Source: Patescibacteria group bacterium (GTDB taxonomy: Bacteria > Patescibacteriota > Patescibacteriia > UM-FILTER-42-10). From it: a stretch of DNA of 64,000 nt. The stretch's first letter is position 1. The number at the start of each line of letters is the position of its first letter. Under the pieces are notes generated by a model. That model saw nothing but the letters and a program-made list of their open reading frames with translations, made no database searches and was not told where the DNA came from. Positions 171 to 63,253 of this stretch are shown here, in pieces. The translations under genes were made by a program, and so were the position numbers. The stretch spans positions 6-64,005 of the forward strand of contig JBAYGC010000006.1 of assembly GCA_041666845.1 (NCBI GenBank), read 5' to 3'.

Positions 171-743
171 ATGAAACGCACACTGCTCATTTACATCCTG
201 GCCATTCTGGCCATCGCCACCCTTACCACCCTCTCCGGCTGCGGTGCTCCCTACATCAACACGTGGACGGCCCCCAACGGGACCTACCACGCCGACATGG
301 GAACGTATCGCCAGTCGCGCAACGCCAAGCTCCTCGTCCACTACGACGGTGCGATCTGGCACAACATCGCCAGGAAGGACTGCGCGGACAACAAGAAGCC
401 GTACATCCTCCGCAAGACCGACACCGAATTCATGGTGGAGGTCGGACACCCGAAGAAGTTCGTCGGTACTGTGATCTCGGTGGAGGTCTGGCTCGATGAC
501 ATCGGCCCGATCCAGGCGCAGGGACGATCGGACGGGAAGTACTACTTCACCGTCAGCACCCGCGATTCGCGAGTGAGTGGCCTCTGGGCTCGTTTCGACG
601 GCCTGTCGCCCGGCTATCACGTCATCACCGCCAGGATTGCCTGGCAGCACACGCGCGGGCCCTACTACGATGGTCCGGCGAGCGAAGATTTCGTGCAGAT
701 CGTCGAAGGTTGGGTCGAATTCGACCCGTGGCACATTCGTTGA
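171..743 (+). CDS. Lipoprotein of unknown function, encoded in a GC-rich island (signal peptide plus LSGC lipobox)
   Basis: 190-aa ORF. N-terminus MKRTLLIYILAILAIATLTTLSGC is a classic lipoprotein signal. Strong third-codon-position G/C bias in this frame, and strong SD. The gene is about 60-65% GC by eye, against an AT-rich background. Confidence 0.6.
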   Translation: MKRTLLIYILAILAIATLTTLSGCGAPYINTWTAPNGTYHADMGTYRQSRNAKLLVHYDGAIWHNIARKDCADNKKPYILRKTDTEFMVEVGHPKKFVGTVISVEVWLDDIGPIQAQGRSDGKYYFTVSTRDSRVSGLWARFDGLSPGYHVITARIAWQHTRGPYYDGPASEDFVQIVEGWVEFDPWHIR

Positions 744-5369: not shown

Positions 5370-5939
5370 CTAAATATCGTATTTATATCTTTTCTTCGCA
5401 GCCGCTCCGCCTTTGATCATGATCATCAGCAGTATCGGCGCCAAGACCCAGATAAACTGACTGATTTCCAAAGTAAATAATGTCTTAGTCAACGGAGCTA
5501 ATCCATCTAGTGCCGATTTCGGCAGGAATGACAGGGTGATACTGATCAAAAGTCCGACGTGCATAATACTGAAAACAATTACTTGCCACCATTTTCCCCG
5601 TTCATCTGAACTGGCGACGGTAGAGATTAATGCAGACCGGGAAAGCATAAAAAATAATGCAACAAAAACAGCTACAAAGGCTGTTATTTTAACCACAAAG
5701 AATTGATTCACACCGATCTCGCCGGTAGTATCCCCCAAAAACGGGGCGGTATTGATTACGGCCATGGCCATATAGATACTGATCAGGATTACGATGATCC
5801 GATCACGACCCAGTGACATGCCATACAGCAGAGCAGCGATGACAAAAAACAGGATAATAAAGAGGTCCCAGGTTGGTTCTGACCAGTCAAAATTCGCTAC
5901 CCATGAACCGGTGTCTGCTACAACTGTTGCGAAAAACAT
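5370..5939 (-). CDS. Integral membrane protein, unknown function
   Basis: 189 aa with 5-6 hydrophobic helices and no recognisable motif. Confidence 0.55.
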   Translation of the reverse strand: MFFATVVADTGSWVANFDWSEPTWDLFIILFFVIAALLYGMSLGRDRIIVILISIYMAMAVINTAPFLGDTTGEIGVNQFFVVKITAFVAVFVALFFMLSRSALISTVASSDERGKWWQVIVFSIMHVGLLISITLSFLPKSALDGLAPLTKTLFTLEISQFIWVLAPILLMIMIKGGAAAKKRYKYDI

Positions 5940-6045
5940 TGTATTACTCCCCCTTTTGTTTTATTTTAGCTGATTACTTTGTAAGTATAACACAAAAACA
6001 ATAAATAGGCAATCGCGATACCTATATTACTGTGGATAAACTGAA

Positions 6046-29126: not shown

Positions 29127-29158
29127 GCCTTGTCAAAACGGAGACAAAGCTCAAGGAT

Positions 29159-29671
29159 CTAGAACAGAACGAACAGGCGGTACGAAGCGATAGCTGAGGT
29201 CAGAACACCGACCATGTTCCCTGTGAAAATGAGCAGGAACGCGCGCGGCAGTTTTAAGAGGCGCGCAGTGATGATGGAAACCGTGACCGCATACGGCAGG
29301 AGCGGGATTGCGACCAGGAAGAAGATCACGGCGCTGGGGTACCGGCTGTTCACGATATAGCTCGTCAGCATATCGCGAAAACGTTGCAGACCGGCGTTGA
29401 TTGCGAAAAGCCTGCGCTCCATCTGTTGTGAACGGCCATTGGCACCGTTCTGCCGTAGGACACGCTTCGTGAGCACAATCGTTTGCTCGCCCAACCAGAG
29501 GAGCATCTCGGGACAGTAGAACAGCAGAGTCATCCCGATGCTCGAGCCGATGAGCAGTGCGAAGAACCCCTTCCAGAAGCCGTAACCGGCCAGAAACACG
29601 GCGAAGGCCGTTACCTCTTCCTGCCAGATGGCTGACCAGACAAAGAAGAGCTCGTCCAGCAAGAAAACCAC
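29159..29671 (-). CDS. GC-rich island gene: small polytopic membrane protein (possibly DedA/TVP38-like)
   Basis: 170 aa with 4 hydrophobic helices. GTG start, preceded by GGAGGT with 6-nt spacing. The gene is GC-rich against AT-rich flanks. The overlapping ORF 29151..29720 is a frame artefact. Confidence 0.5.
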   Translation of the reverse strand: MVFLLDELFFVWSAIWQEEVTAFAVFLAGYGFWKGFFALLIGSSIGMTLLFYCPEMLLWLGEQTIVLTKRVLRQNGANGRSQQMERRLFAINAGLQRFRDMLTSYIVNSRYPSAVIFFLVAIPLLPYAVTVSIITARLLKLPRAFLLIFTGNMVGVLTSAIASYRLFVLF

Positions 29672-29762
29672 GTAATGACCTCCTGTCAGAGTGAATCCAA
29701 AGGCACGGTCGAAGTATCATAATTTATCATAACCTATCCTGCAGGTCAATATATAAAACAGC

Positions 29763-55065: not shown

Positions 55066-55551
55066 CTACTTGTCGCCGGCGGGGAGTGTGGCGAGGAGGT
55101 CGCGGGGCTCAGGGTCCGGGCGCAAATGCTGCGGGCGAAGCTGCAGAACACGAGTCCTGCTTCCTTCGCTGACCACGGTAGTTACCGTGGCAGTCGCCGG
55201 CCGAGTTGAGTCCGCAGGGTAGATCTCCACCAACTGTTTGGCCACCACGAGCATGGCTTTGCCGCAGTAGCTCGACAGGTTGTCGGAGCTGATCATGACA
55301 ATGTACGCAGCATTCGCGTACTTGTTCTTGAGGAGGTTGACCGTCACGAAGGATTCCAACCGGTACTCCTCGCCCTCGACGAGGTCGGACAGCGTGACCA
55401 CCGGGATGCTGAACGCACGCAGATTCTTGATCTGCTGGCGGTAGACGAGACTGCTCCCGATCCCGAGGAGGATCGCGAAGAAGGCGAGGACAGCCCAGAA
55501 ACGGGTGGCGGTGTACCAGTGGTACCGCTTGGCGAGCTGCAAGCTAGGCAT
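55066..55551 (-). CDS. GC-rich island gene: membrane-anchored protein with a Pro/Thr/Ala-rich tail
   Basis: 161 aa. One N-terminal TM helix, a roughly 70-aa folded region, and a low-complexity PT-rich C-terminus typical of high-GC donors. Confidence 0.5.
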   Translation of the reverse strand: MPSLQLAKRYHWYTATRFWAVLAFFAILLGIGSSLVYRQQIKNLRAFSIPVVTLSDLVEGEEYRLESFVTVNLLKNKYANAAYIVMISSDNLSSYCGKAMLVVAKQLVEIYPADSTRPATATVTTVVSEGSRTRVLQLRPQHLRPDPEPRDLLATLPAGDK

Positions 55552-55665
55552 GATCTACACCTTTCACTTCCGTGTGTGGAAACACCCTCACGCGTAAGGG
55601 CATTTCAGAGAAGAACCTGATCCACGCGTGACCGAGCATGTTATCATACTTTGGCCAATTTGTCA

Positions 55666-55695
55666 ACCCTGTTAGAGAGTTTTCTCTAACAGGGT
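55666..55695. promoter_or_regulatory. Perfect 12-bp inverted repeat ACCCTGTTAGAG-N6-CTCTAACAGGGT abutting the TTGACA of the island-gene promoter (operator-like)
   Basis: Arms 55666-55677 and 55684-55695. On the minus strand the palindrome is immediately followed by TTGACA. Confidence 0.45.
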
Positions 55696-55736
55696 CAATC
55701 CCGCATACGATTAACCTTCAAGGGGGAAAAATCACA

Positions 55737-59478: not shown

Positions 59479-61152
59479 TTATTTAGTTACCCTGATTACC
59501 TCTTCCAAGGTTGTTTGTTTATTAAGTACTTTAATTATTCCGTCTTCATACATTGTCCTCATATTCTTGGCTTGCGCTGATTTTTCTATTGCCGAAGTAT
59601 GCGCCCGGTTGATAATTAAATCATGAATGTCTTCATCCATTTTCAATACTTCAAAGATTCCGGTTCTTCCGGAATAACCGGTATTGAGACACTCCGGACA
59701 ACCTTTGCCTTTCGCAACAATTGACTGTTCTGTATTAGAATTAGAGTATTTTTGTATTGATTCATTAGAAATTGAATCGAGGGCATATTCCGTTTTACAG
59801 GAATCGCAAATATTCCGTACTAACCGCTGGCCAATAATTGCTTTCAGGGTGGATGCGATCAAATACGGCTCCACTCCCATATCCAGCAGTCTCGGAATTG
59901 CGGCGGCGGCGCTGTTAGTATGTAAAGAAGTTAAAACTAAATGACCGGTCATTGCCGCGTTAATTGCGATGGTTGCTGTTTCTTTATCCCGAATTTCTCC
60001 GATCATAATAATATCCGGATCCTGACGCAATATTGAACGTAAGCCATTGGCAAAATTTAAGTCCACATGCGGATTTACCTGTATCTGATTCGCACCGGTC
60101 AAATGGTATTCGATCGGATCTTCGATTGTGGAAATATTCACTTGTTGGTTATTAATCTCTTTCACAAGAGAATATAAAGTCGTTGTCTTACCTGAACCGG
60201 TCGGTCCGGTAATTAAAATCATTCCGTTGGAAAATCCCAGTATTTTTTTCAAATCTTCACGGTTGTTTTTTTCCAAACCCAAAGTATCCAGTGAAAGTTT
60301 TTCATTATCCGTATCCAGAAATCTTAATGAAGCTTTTTGGCCGTGCAATGTCGGAATAATAGATAAACGCACCGCAACTTTATATCCCGATTCATTAAAA
60401 CTAAACCGGCCGTCCTGCGGACGCATGTGCTCGTCAATACGAATTTGAGACAGTATTTTAGTACGCGCGATTACCGGTGCCAGCAGTTCTTTCGGCAAAG
60501 TAAAAAATTCGTGAAGCATTCCGTCCATCCGAAAACGAACTGAAACTGAATCCTCACGGGGTTCAATATGCATATCGCTTGCCTCACTTTTTATGCCGAA
60601 AATTATCATTTGGTTCAGCAGTGAAATGATCGGCGCTTCCTGTCCCATTGTTTCCGGAGTGTTGTTAATCCGGCAAGCTCTGACAATCAGTTCATCAATT
60701 GCTTTTTTGCTGGATTCCGCGGAATTATTGAAAGTTTCCTCCAAATATTGTTTGATATCCCTCTGATTGGCCAGATACACCGCTACATCCTTATTCAGTG
60801 ATCTTTTTACATAGGCAATCAGTTCCGTATTTTCCGGTCTGGCCATTGCCACATAAACATATGCTTCGTCTTCCTGAAAAGGCAATACTAAATGTTCAAG
60901 ACAAATAGAAGACGGGAGTTTTTTGACTACATCTGAATATATTTTTACCTGGTTCAGATCAACCACCTGTAGTGAATGTGAGTCCTGCAGTAATGAAATC
61001 AGCTTGGATGATGGAACTATCCCCTGTTCAATACAAAAATCCAAAACATTGCCCATCTGGAGTTTTTCGTACTCTTTGAGCTTATTGGATGTTTCTTTGG
61101 ATAAGATACCCTCTTTTCTTAGGGCATCAGTTACTTGTTTGGTTGCAATCAT
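59479..61152 (-). CDS. pilB: Type IV pilus assembly ATPase PilB (GspE family)
   Basis: Walker A GPTGSGKTT, Asp/His boxes and a C-terminal tetracysteine motif (CDSC...CPEC). Confidence 0.9.
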   Translation of the reverse strand: MIATKQVTDALRKEGILSKETSNKLKEYEKLQMGNVLDFCIEQGIVPSSKLISLLQDSHSLQVVDLNQVKIYSDVVKKLPSSICLEHLVLPFQEDEAYVYVAMARPENTELIAYVKRSLNKDVAVYLANQRDIKQYLEETFNNSAESSKKAIDELIVRACRINNTPETMGQEAPIISLLNQMIIFGIKSEASDMHIEPREDSVSVRFRMDGMLHEFFTLPKELLAPVIARTKILSQIRIDEHMRPQDGRFSFNESGYKVAVRLSIIPTLHGQKASLRFLDTDNEKLSLDTLGLEKNNREDLKKILGFSNGMILITGPTGSGKTTTLYSLVKEINNQQVNISTIEDPIEYHLTGANQIQVNPHVDLNFANGLRSILRQDPDIIMIGEIRDKETATIAINAAMTGHLVLTSLHTNSAAAAIPRLLDMGVEPYLIASTLKAIIGQRLVRNICDSCKTEYALDSISNESIQKYSNSNTEQSIVAKGKGCPECLNTGYSGRTGIFEVLKMDEDIHDLIINRAHTSAIEKSAQAKNMRTMYEDGIIKVLNKQTTLEEVIRVTK

Positions 61153-61256
61153 CTTTTTGCCAGATAGAATTTGCTAAGGTAAGCACATTTTTTTACCATC
61201 AAATGCTTTACTTTATTATTACTACTAAAACATGCCATCTTATACCGAATTCGATA

Positions 61257-61268
61257 TTATGTCAACCC
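61257..61268. repeat. 12-bp direct repeat TTATGTCAACCC (left copy), which is the pilB promoter -35 region on the minus strand
   Basis: Identical 12-mer at 61902-61913. The two copies bracket a roughly 630-bp GC-rich insert. Confidence 0.7.
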
Positions 61269-61377
61269 CTAAACGATGATCCTTTATTCTAAAGAAAAAA
61301 TAGGCAAATATTATAATAAAAAATCCCGCAGATACCAAGGGGTATTACGGGCGGCCGGTTACGGCCAAAAGAGCTGT

Positions 61378-61809
61378 TTACAGGTTGACAACAAGCGTTT
61401 CCGCCTGAATGAAGTGGATCGGACCGAAGTCCCGGCGCATGCGTGCCAGCTCCTTTTCGGACCAATCCGGCTCCACCGTTTTGCCGAAACCATCCACGGT
61501 GTCAGCCAGATGTTCTTCGGTGAGTAGTTCGAATGCTTCGGGAGTAGTCTGGCACAATTTGCCGGTCACGACCACTTCGAATTCATCGCGGACGTTCTCC
61601 GCGATGACGGCATTCAGTGTCCTGAAATCGATTGCGTCTCCGGCAAAGAAGAACTTCGTCCCGTTCTGGCAGCAGATATATACGCCACCTTCCGGGACTG
61701 ATGCATCCTGCCGGATTGACATGAAAACATTCCCCATGTCATCACAGCGCTCCACCCAGAGGCGGAGATTCTCAACGCGATCGATGGAGGCACCTGCCTG
61801 CTTACGCAT
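61378..61809 (-). CDS. GC-rich island gene: hypothetical cytoplasmic protein (143 aa)
   Basis: High-GC ORF with G/C-biased third codon positions. Upstream on the minus strand: TTGACA - 16 bp - TAGTAT. Bracketed by the 12-bp direct repeats. Confidence 0.5.
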   Translation of the reverse strand: MRKQAGASIDRVENLRLWVERCDDMGNVFMSIRQDASVPEGGVYICCQNGTKFFFAGDAIDFRTLNAVIAENVRDEFEVVVTGKLCQTTPEAFELLTEEHLADTVDGFGKTVEPDWSEKELARMRRDFGPIHFIQAETLVVNL

Positions 61810-61901
61810 GTACTAGTCCCTTTCAACGCTTTGGTTCACATCCATGTGGCGAACTGACGTCCACCTGCGGTAGTAATTGCCAATACTACCAGAATAAGAT
61901 T

Positions 61902-61913
61902 TTATGTCAACCC
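61902..61913. repeat. 12-bp direct repeat TTATGTCAACCC (right copy)
   Basis: See 61257-61268. It is followed by GC-rich hairpins gcatttgc-tt-gcaaatgc and ccccTgcaccc-agtgt-gggtgcgggg. Confidence 0.7.
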
Positions 61914-61987
61914 GCGGCATTTGCTTGCAAATGCACGGGTCAACCCCTGCACCCAGTGTGGGTGCGGGGGTCAAGACAGATGGACAA

Positions 61988-62019
61988 TACAAAAAAGACT
62001 TGCGGAATTGGTAAGTCTT
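61988..62019 (-). terminator. Intrinsic terminator after the ABC transporter operon
   Basis: aagactt-gcggaattggt-aagtctt, with a T-run on the minus strand. Confidence 0.6.
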
Positions 62020-62038
62020 TAATCAAACCTTATTAATT

Positions 62039-63253
62039 TTATTTTTGCTTTTGTAAGAGGAATTTAAAGGATATTTTTTTATTCACCTCCAGCGATCCGA
62101 CTTCAAACAATTTAAAGGCAAAATAGAATCCGATCATCACATATAATGCCACGACTACGACTCCTGCTACTGACTCCCAGATAGTTAATGCACCGATGGA
62201 ACTGCGGAAAATCAGAATCAGCGGAGCGGTAAACGGAGTAAAACTTACTATTCTGGATAATGTTCCCGAAGGTTCTGCTAACAAAAATGATGCAAAATAG
62301 ACCGGAATAATTGAAAGAATAATAAAGACTGAGGAAAACTGTTGGGCATCACGGTATTTCGGCATTGCCGCGCCAACTCCCACCATGATACTGGAAAGAA
62401 ACAGAAACCCGCCGATTGTATAAAATATGGATAGCAGTATTTGACCGACCGTTACATCAACGGCCGACCAGTCAATTGTGATTGGAAAAATATTGGTCGA
62501 AACTACTACAATTCCGGTCATCAGAGCTCCCAACGCGAACAGTGAAGTCAACGACACGCCAGTAAGCCCGACTAATTTCCCCCAAATCAGTTGGCGCGGT
62601 TTCACAATGGACAATATTGTTTCAATCATTCGGTTCTCCTTTTCTTCCGAGACACTGGATAACATAAATCCGGATGAAAACATAACCATCACAAAATAAA
62701 CCAATATAGAAATTATCGGAATAATAAATACTTCAAAACGCTGATCTACTATTGCTCCGTTTTTATATAACGTTTTTTCTAGCTTAAGATCACTGGAAAA
62801 TAAAGCTATTCTTGCCGGATCTTTGATCTCCAGCAGGATATTTTGCTTCAGCATTTCCTTTGCCACCGTATTAAACCGGTCACGCGAAATAAGGCTTGTA
62901 TCAATAGCATATATATCAATTACTTTGTCATTCAGTATGTTCGCCGGATAGAAAAAAGCTGCATCCGCTTTTCCTGCTCTTACCTGCTCTTTAGCCACCT
63001 CAATATCGGTGGCAATAAAATAAGGAGGAACGATTGTATTACTATTAATTATCCCTGACTGATCAATGATTAATATATTATCAATATTTTTTACTTCTTC
63101 TGCTATCTTCTTTTCTACCTGGGTTGCTGACGTTCCTGAAACTGCGACTAAGCCCAAATAGATAATCGGAACAATTACAATCATAATCCAAAAAGACGGT
63201 TTCTGAACTATCTTCAAATATTCTTTTTTCGCTACTTTTAGGATTGTATTCAT
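62039..63253 (-). CDS. ABC-2 family transporter permease
   Basis: An N-terminal TM helix, a large periplasmic loop and 5 C-terminal TM helices, i.e. the ABC-2/NatB-like architecture. Overlaps the ATPase gene by 4 bp. Confidence 0.75.
   Translation of the reverse strand: MNTILKVAKKEYLKIVQKPSFWIMIVIVPIIYLGLVAVSGTSATQVEKKIAEEVKNIDNILIIDQSGIINSNTIVPPYFIATDIEVAKEQVRAGKADAAFFYPANILNDKVIDIYAIDTSLISRDRFNTVAKEMLKQNILLEIKDPARIALFSSDLKLEKTLYKNGAIVDQRFEVFIIPIISILVYFVMVMFSSGFMLSSVSEEKENRMIETILSIVKPRQLIWGKLVGLTGVSLTSLFALGALMTGIVVVSTNIFPITIDWSAVDVTVGQILLSIFYTIGGFLFLSSIMVGVGAAMPKYRDAQQFSSVFIILSIIPVYFASFLLAEPSGTLSRIVSFTPFTAPLILIFRSSIGALTIWESVAGVVVVALYVMIGFYFAFKLFEVGSLEVNKKISFKFLLQKQK

Follow-up and report, generated by a model that had tools for sequence, protein, structure and literature searches.

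A 12-nt repeat upstream of pilB in a Patescibacteria genome: shared promoter class and the probable ancient gain of a GC-rich gene

Why should a small GC-rich gene immediately upstream of a pilus operon lie between two identical 12-nt sequences, each containing a promoter -35 hexamer? The question is raised by a 64,000-nt stretch of DNA (the window) from a Patescibacteria group bacterium (GCA_041666845.1, contig JBAYGC010000006.1, positions 6 to 64,005 of the forward strand), in which a 143-aa open reading frame (ORF), designated g143, is found between the two 12-mers and next to pilB. A reading of the sequence alone had taken the repeat for a target-site duplication left by a recent insertion, through which the incoming gene captured a copy of the pilB promoter. 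If true, this would have been a clean and datable case, from an uncultivated ultrasmall bacterium, of a newly inserted gene capturing a promoter. The reading was not upheld: the repeat reflects promoter consensus and the gene is old. The two 12-mers probably form the -35 regions of two distinct promoters, both sigma-70-type and members of one class, and g143 was probably gained anciently and has since been inherited vertically.

The 12-nt repeat and its promoters

The 12-mer TTATGTCAACCC occurs exactly twice in the window (61257-61268 and 61902-61913, plus strand), with no further copy at up to one mismatch. Both have the minus-strand sequence gggTTGACAtaa and contain a TTGACA hexamer, as the sequence-only reading had described. 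Around the copies the similarity widens imperfectly to 19 of 22 nt (61247-61268 compared with 61892-61913). The features concerned are:

61257..61268, minus strand: copy 1 of the 12-mer, the -35 of the pilB operon promoter (61265-61260) with flanks
61902..61913, minus strand: copy 2 of the 12-mer, the -35 of the g143 promoter (61910-61905) with flanks
61237..61265, minus strand: predicted pilB promoter, TTGACA, 17 nt, TAAGAT
61883..61910, minus strand: predicted g143 promoter, TTGACA, 16 nt, TGgTAGTAT (extended -10)
61378..61809, minus strand: g143, a 143-aa GC-rich orphan ORF with a GC content of 0.55 and a GC content at third codon positions (GC3) of 0.65

Both promoter assignments were borne out. 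In a consensus promoter scan the g143 and pilB promoters each scored 10/12 with correct spacing, and their hexamers are kept in orthologs. ATTCTGGTAGTAT is invariant in every lineage that covers the g143 promoter, and TTGACA, 17 nt, TAnnnT is retained in all orthologs of the pilB promoter, whose -35 is kept in L001, L005, L006, L097, L110 and L089 (L-numbers denote related loci from other genomes; L108 is the window's own genome). In other words, both promoters have a -35 and a -10 at 16-18 nt, conserved in orthologs and followed by a gene on the same strand, as expected of sigma-70-type promoters. The textbook extended -10 promoter of this type reads TTGACA, 16-18 nt, TGnTATAAT. Similarly, both 12-mers present a perfect TTGACA at the right distance from TAnnnT, upstream of conserved 5' untranslated regions (5'UTRs) and ORFs, and the g143 promoter has the TG extension. 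Unlike the textbook consensus, the predicted promoters of this clade have a run of G immediately ahead of the -35, which in many cases forms the 3' arm of a palindrome. The combination of G-run or palindrome, TTGACA and extended -10 provides a first view of promoter architecture in this Patescibacteria lineage.

As in the target-site duplications of insertion sequences and transposons, identical direct repeats flank a compositionally foreign segment, and the copies stand exactly at its edges. However, the bare 12-nt repeat is at chance level in the window, where exact direct repeats of at least 12 nt at a spacing of 50-1000 nt number seven; shuffles that kept the local composition gave 4.5 ± 2.1, and 18% of them reached seven. 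No terminal inverted repeats pair the ends of the 633-bp segment between the copies (61269-61901), and no transposase or integrase is encoded in it, g143 being its sole ORF with coding signal. Moreover, the motif occurs at unrelated promoters and the insertion was ancient (see below). On these grounds the interpretation as a target-site duplication is not supported.

The core promoters of g143 and pilB could be aligned over 37 columns with about 78% identity and a score of 19 (shuffles 9.7 ± 1.6). The pilB promoter and P171, which precedes an unrelated gene at a distance of 61 kb, gave a score of 17 over 44 columns. Because P171 aligns about as well with the pilB promoter, the likeness is a property of a promoter class and not of the g143/pilB pair. 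The class has roughly the outline aGGG.TTGACAaAAT...TT.GGTAtA...GGCATGTTT, and its shared -35 region is GGGTTGACA with A-rich bases after it. Exact GGGTTGACA is present three times in the window, compared with 0.46 expected, and all three copies are at minus-strand promoters. Promoters with this motif were also observed in L001 (two), L005, L006 (two) and at L108:8354, with the -10 always 15-18 nt away; the sites outside the g143/pilB pair include g161 (55669-55661), the cassette at L108:8354 and L001:2977. The third copy in the window belongs to the following feature:

55661..55698, minus strand: third GGGTTGACA promoter with the palindrome TTGACCCTGTTAGAG-aaaa-CTCTCTAACAGGGTTGACA (-23.7 kcal/mol, z = -5.6), upstream of g161, a GC-rich orphan at 55066-55551

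The idea that the incoming gene captured a copy of the pilB promoter is likewise not supported. No observation calls for it, although for an event of such age it keeps a small probability, and it would require an incoming -10 exactly 16 nt from the end of the insert.

Age and origin of g143 at the pilB junction

The neighbours of g143 in the window are:

59479..61152, minus strand: pilB, 557 aa, first gene of the pilus operon, encoding a T2SSE ATPase (Pfam PF00437, 1.9e-126) with an MshEN N-terminal domain (PF05157); GC 0.40, GC3 0.385
61989..62020, minus strand: predicted intrinsic terminator of the ABC-transporter operon, AAAGACUU...AAGUCUUUUUUGU, kept in relatives
62039..63253, minus strand: ABC-2 permease (PF12698, 4.7e-29), the upstream neighbour; about 40% GC, GC3 0.38

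That a 143-aa gene richer in GC than pilB lies between the copies was thus confirmed, but its supposed recency was not, as relatives carry the same gene. It was found at the same locus in five other lineages, with a readable pilB junction in four. The order ABC ATPase, ABC-2 permease, g143, pilB, pilC and onwards is shared by L001/L002 (g143 92% identical), L005 (71%) and L006 (70%). On short contigs, L097 (58%) has g143 followed by pilB, and L105 has the permease followed by g143. Third-position differences from the window were, for g143 and pilB respectively, 0.22 and 0.32 in L001, 0.39 and 0.46 in L005, 0.37 and 0.36 in L006, and 0.52 and 0.52 in L097. The divergence of g143 tracks that of pilB, which argues that the gene is old and vertically inherited.

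The insertion as such, the other part of the claim, stood. In L088/L089 the orthologous permease (67% identical) and pilB (66%) are separated by a 281-nt spacer with no gene and no remnant of g143. The spacer holds a terminator, a small CCCCG...CGGGG hairpin, one promoter (ctcTTGACAaaaattagtttatGGTATAGGAT) and the pilB leader. The more distant L090 and L092 are also without g143 and have other upstream neighbours. Because L088/L089 have the same neighbours without the gene, g143 appears to have been gained at the ABC-transporter/pilB junction, once and anciently; this is a clear gained gene with an empty-site outgroup. Its atypical GC3 (0.65 compared with 0.385 in pilB) and its patchy distribution, with absence from L088/L089, L090 and L092, are those of a horizontally acquired gene, although it is composition only that points to a foreign origin. 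The proposed check for an empty site with a single 12-mer had a mixed outcome. The junction without the gene exists, but its promoter, ctcTTGACAaaa, shares only 8 of 12 positions with the 12-mer, and with pilB at 66% identity the spacers are too diverged to be aligned or to set breakpoints.

The pilB leader of the window contains a short conserved element, GCTnAnnTTAGC, with a 4-bp hairpin about 20-30 nt ahead of the start codon (61167-61186, minus strand). The same element is present in the empty-site outgroup L089, so the pilB promoter and leader would be orthologous between occupied and empty sites.

In the L094 lineage (also L095, L096 and L106; L094:5600-7250) all that is left of the ABC transporter is a 45-aa remnant in which the N-terminus of the ATPase is fused to the C-terminus of the permease. 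The locus lacks the pilus operon altogether and g143 is directly followed by an ortholog of g161 (47% identical), the deletion junction being at about the -35 of the downstream promoter. Since g143 is present there without the pilus operon, it is not obligately linked to pilB.

Losses therefore happen at this locus, and g143 might be ancestral to a wider group and have been lost in L088/L089, its GC-richness being under selection (e.g. for mRNA structure or codon choice) and not foreign. In favour of this, five lineages whose synonymous divergence reaches 0.52 have all kept a g143 GC3 of 0.58-0.69, which points to selection on composition. On the other hand, the more distant L090 and L092 lack the gene too, the empty site contains no remnant of it, and a profile search of 1.84 billion representatives found no homolog outside the clade. 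We regard ancestral presence followed by loss as very unlikely.

The history that we favour can be outlined as follows. A g143 unit, composed of upstream palindrome, promoter (TTGACA, 16 nt, TGnTAGTAT), 5'UTR, Shine-Dalgarno, ORF and intrinsic terminator, would have been inserted a single time into the spacer that separates the ABC-transporter terminator from the pilB promoter. This would have happened in the common ancestor of a clade with pilB proteins at least 85% identical, within which the unit would have been passed down vertically. One member of the promoter class GGG-TTGACA-A-rich would drive the pilB pilus operon and another g143. The terminator would end g143 transcription and the pilB promoter would restart it about 50 nt further on.

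Several observations weigh against this history. The clade-wide consensus 12-mers of the g143 promoter (GGGTTGACATAA) and the pilB promoter (GGGTTGACAAAA) are one position apart. The outgroup promoter at the empty site is without GGG. GC3 has not drifted to the genome value in the orphan genes, although synonymous divergence is close to saturation and third positions differ by up to 52%: it ranges over 0.58-0.69 in g143 and 0.77-0.83 in g161, compared with 0.32-0.40 in adjacent core genes. A simple "old horizontal transfer" does not explain the undrifted GC3 of g143. Finally, neither a donor lineage nor a mobile-element context was found for g143: no homolog outside the clade, no relative on viral contigs and no tRNA gene in the window.

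The closeness of the two consensus 12-mers is a point in favour of an ancient insertion that duplicated about 12 bp including the -35, whereupon the upstream copy and the -10 of the insert became the g143 promoter and selection kept the copies alike. The exact position of the copies at the borders of the foreign segment agrees with this, as does the single TTGACA promoter at the empty site of the outgroup. So does the occurrence of a CCCC...GGGG hairpin both in the empty-site spacer and, in the window, L001 and L006, on the stretch from the ABC terminator to the g143 -35. However, GGGTTGACA is also found at the head of three or more further promoters, none of which can be a scar of the same event, and the insert would have had to bring a TG-extended -10 at precisely the distance mentioned above. 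The 8/12 match without GGG at the empty site, the chance level of 12-mer repeats and the lack of terminal inverted repeats and a recombinase likewise speak against it. An ancient duplication thus seems quite improbable, and we prefer two separate promoters of one class.

With its atypical GC and GC3, its restriction to one clade, the empty site in the outgroup and its lack of characterised homologs, g143 resembles the ORFan islets, i.e. single-gene genomic islands. It differs from them in having no tRNA, integrase, phage context or donor, and in a composition that has not drifted over a long vertical history. A tRNA or tmRNA integration site was rejected because no tRNA gene is present in the window.

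A further relative, L110:1-262 (GCA_018827645.1, pilB 85% identical), has no g143 terminator upstream of the pilB promoter; a divergent ORF start, MPKNILEERIRWVRMVDDGKVKL..., is found there. Synteny is broken in L110, whose contig reaches no further than 262 nt upstream of pilB.

The g143 transcription unit and its product

Between g143 and five orthologs, differences are most frequent at third, less frequent at first and least frequent at second codon positions. The indels of the alignment are all in frame and 51 columns are invariant. Because of this pattern g143 is considered a real protein-coding gene. Its start has been called differently: the NCBI record for this genome (P0002) begins at Met30 (114 aa), and the L001 call at an upstream GTG (154 aa; L001:6001-6465), a start that is blocked in the window by an in-frame TAG. 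Conservation of residues 11-24 and of the putative Shine-Dalgarno sequence, AAAGGGA, supports the ATG start of the 143-aa form. The unit contains two further elements:

61837..61869, minus strand: invariant core of the g143 5'UTR, 33 nt, CGCAGGTGGAC, 4-5 variable nt, GTTCGCCACA(T/G)GGATGTG
61318..61351, minus strand: predicted intrinsic terminator of g143, an 11-bp bulged stem (61351-61325) followed by A and six U

The 5'UTR is about 70 nt long. Its 33-nt core is identical in seven lineages, even where protein identity is about 60%, and is thus more conserved than the g143 protein. Within the core lies a 7-bp hairpin, GGUGGAC/GUUCGCC, whose loop varies while its stem does not. In a scan of 241 million metagenome records the core was found, among AT-rich contigs, solely ahead of g143. 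No Rfam family reached its gathering score in the window, and nothing relevant to the hairpins or the 5'UTR appeared at E up to 10 in 61100-62100. A stable overall fold of the 5'UTR was rejected, as its stability was like that of shuffles (z = 0.34), and the hairpin stem shows no covariation because it never varies. The core could be a protein-binding site on the RNA or an operator on the DNA.

The stretch containing the terminator (61318-61380, minus strand, 63 nt) folds with -23.4 kcal/mol (z = -2.9). The terminator is conserved in relatives with a C-G to U-G (compensatory wobble) change. Because it precedes the pilB -35 by about 50 nt, g143 is, as far as conserved promoters and the predicted terminator and transcription starts indicate, an independent transcription unit insulated from pilB.

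What does g143 encode? The family consists of six clusters in 5.8 billion proteins, all of them from Patescibacteria metagenome-assembled genomes. Two extra profile matches, P0127 and P0128, were rejected as artefacts, being long repeat proteins that pile up weak scores. There are no relatives of g143 on IMG/VR viral contigs and a viral origin was rejected for that reason. Immunity, toxin and phage accessory profiles, which had been suggested as a place to look, gave no significant match, and neither did those of pilus accessory and defence families: Pfam and PADLOC returned nothing, and PHROGs and NCBIfam one sub-threshold match each (E 0.02; E 0.086). The best sequence match in the PDB, ACC oxidase (E = 0.013), is not credible. 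A PilZ-like reading of the motifs RxxxxR and DxSxxxG was also rejected, since the D and S are not conserved and Pfam PilZ does not match.

The AlphaFold2 model of g143 is beta-rich but poor, with a mean predicted local distance difference test score (pLDDT) of 53. Foldseek matches to it were weak (E at least 0.012, template modelling score at most 0.36) but included many proteins with an oligonucleotide/oligosaccharide-binding (OB) fold, for example SSB and, from LysRS and AspRS, the anticodon-binding domains. The model therefore gives a hint only of an OB-like fold. No signal peptide or membrane segment was apparent on inspection by eye. Tentatively, and with considerable doubt, g143 might be a small cytoplasmic beta-rich protein with a regulatory or nucleic-acid-binding role, not mechanistically tied to the pilus.

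Palindromes, promoters and other GC-rich cassettes

GC-rich hairpins had been noticed at the right end of the segment, and two are indeed present there:

61940..61974, minus strand: hairpin B, UUGACCCCCGCACCCA-CAC-UGGGUGCAGGGGUUGA, with TTGAC on both sides
61911..61939, minus strand: hairpin C, CCCGUGCAUUUGC-AAGC-AAAUGCCGCGGG, with the 8-nt direct repeat GGGTTGAC around it (61946-61939 and 61913-61906)

Jointly they fold with -40.2 kcal/mol (z = -4.8) and are located upstream of the g143 promoter, with the ABC-operon terminator beyond. Hairpin C is formed by the 25-nt palindrome CCGTGCATTTGCAAGCAAATGCCGC. The whole GGGTTGAC-bracketed unit (61905-61946) is absent at the orthologous site of L001 and L006, and with it comes a second -35-like box, GGGTTGACC, 33 nt upstream of the -35 in use. 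By this comparison the unit is a small insertion or duplication, specific to the window lineage and carrying a -35 box, on a scale far below that of the event proposed earlier.

A recurrent module can be recognised, in which TTGAC (or TTAAC/TTCAC) is followed by a palindrome of about 25-28 nt, starting with CC and ending with GG, that runs straight into the TTGACA of a consensus promoter. It was found at these sites:

Window, 55663-55698, minus strand: module ahead of g161
Window, 61940-61974, minus strand: module ahead of g143
L108:8330-8362: module with TTAAC as flank
L001:2950-2985 and 5905-5940: two modules
L006:5865-5900: one module

In the window the module is found only ahead of GC-rich orphan genes, and only 2 of the 317 hairpins with a stem of at least 10 are of this type. 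The palindromes vary in sequence among sites and even among orthologous sites, whereas the flanks are conserved; in RNA the TTGA flanks would lengthen the stem through G-U pairs. Intergenic GC-rich palindromes of 26-28 nt bracketed by a constant TTGAC call to mind repetitive extragenic palindromic (REP) sequences and other small palindromic repeats. Those of the clade, however, differ from site to site and are tied to -35 boxes. Because their sequences differ, they do not form a repeat family that one enzyme would recognise.

The identity of the two 12-mers might also be a by-product of promoter-module copying within the genome, if the -35 and the upstream palindrome were spread or homogenised by gene conversion, slippage or small duplications. 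The extra palindrome-plus-GGGTTGAC unit of hairpin C in the window lineage would fit such copying. So would the relation of hairpin B to a sequence ahead of a different cassette in L001 (2950-2985), the resemblance of hairpin C to the sequence ahead of P171 (score 14, p about 0.03) and a derived A-to-T change in the window's pilB promoter, which completes the 12/12 match. For the last of these, though, one point substitution is enough; the palindromes differ among sites, and the similarities are short. Putative mobile promoters have been defined as sequences of more than 50 nt with at least 80% identity upstream of non-homologous genes (Matus-Garcia et al. 2012, PMC3488235). Similar promoter sequences do precede non-homologous genes in the present genome, but the g143/pilB pair, with its 37 columns at about 78%, falls below this definition and shares its likeness with further promoters as a consensus. 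We consider module copying unlikely as the source of the repeat and retain the reading of two promoters of one class.

g143 is not the only gene of its kind. The window, with 43% GC overall, contains further GC-rich islands of up to 0.64 GC, each of which is a small ORF without Pfam match that has a long 5'UTR, a terminator and a TTGACA promoter of its own. The following belong here:

171-743, plus strand: lipoprotein-like orphan gene, 190 aa, GC3 0.82
29151-29720, minus strand: GC-rich orphan
55066-55551, minus strand: g161, GC3 0.83, with an N-terminal membrane segment
L108:8330-8800: Pro-rich ORF of about 57 aa, just past the window edge

Three GC-rich orphan cassettes of the window's genome share the palindrome-promoter module, and the homologs of g161 are restricted to the same clade as g143. 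Together these form a small set of GC-rich orphan genes that have the strongest predicted promoters of the region and a composition that resists drift. The recurrence of the palindrome-plus-GGGTTGACA module at several of these cassettes is the most interesting loose end of this analysis. It could be imagined that shared borders make the GC-rich orphan cassettes of the clade (g143, g161, the Pro-rich ORF of about 57 aa, the 190-aa lipoprotein-like gene and a 124-aa ORF in L006) substrates of a mechanism of cassette insertion or exchange, but we think this improbable. The 5' border would then be a variable CC..GG palindrome bracketed by TTGAC/TTGACA and the 3' border a conserved terminator hairpin, and the -35 repeats would be one trace of the process, which we hold to be no more probable. 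If the cassettes did share a mobility or regulatory mechanism, this would bear on gene gain in reduced episymbiont genomes.

Integron cassettes are normally promoterless. Like them, the orphan units are small, comprise a single gene and lie between imperfect palindromes, and the 124-aa unit of L006 is bracketed by the same terminator hairpin twice. Unlike them, every orphan unit comes with a promoter of its own; neither attC-like core sites nor an integrase gene were seen in the flanks examined, the whole genome not having been searched.

Other ORFs are also found upstream of pilB. In L006 (6430-7256) the 124-aa ORF is a second GC-rich ORF between g143 and pilB. It shows no similarity to g143, so that it was rejected as a paralog, and it has its own promoter, ATTGACGG...; the two copies of the g143 terminator hairpin that bracket it are about 80% identical. 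In L092 (4400-5001; pilB 58% identical) a different ORF of 105 aa, likewise rejected as a g143 paralog for want of similarity, is located directly upstream of the pilB promoter and possesses its own promoter and terminator.

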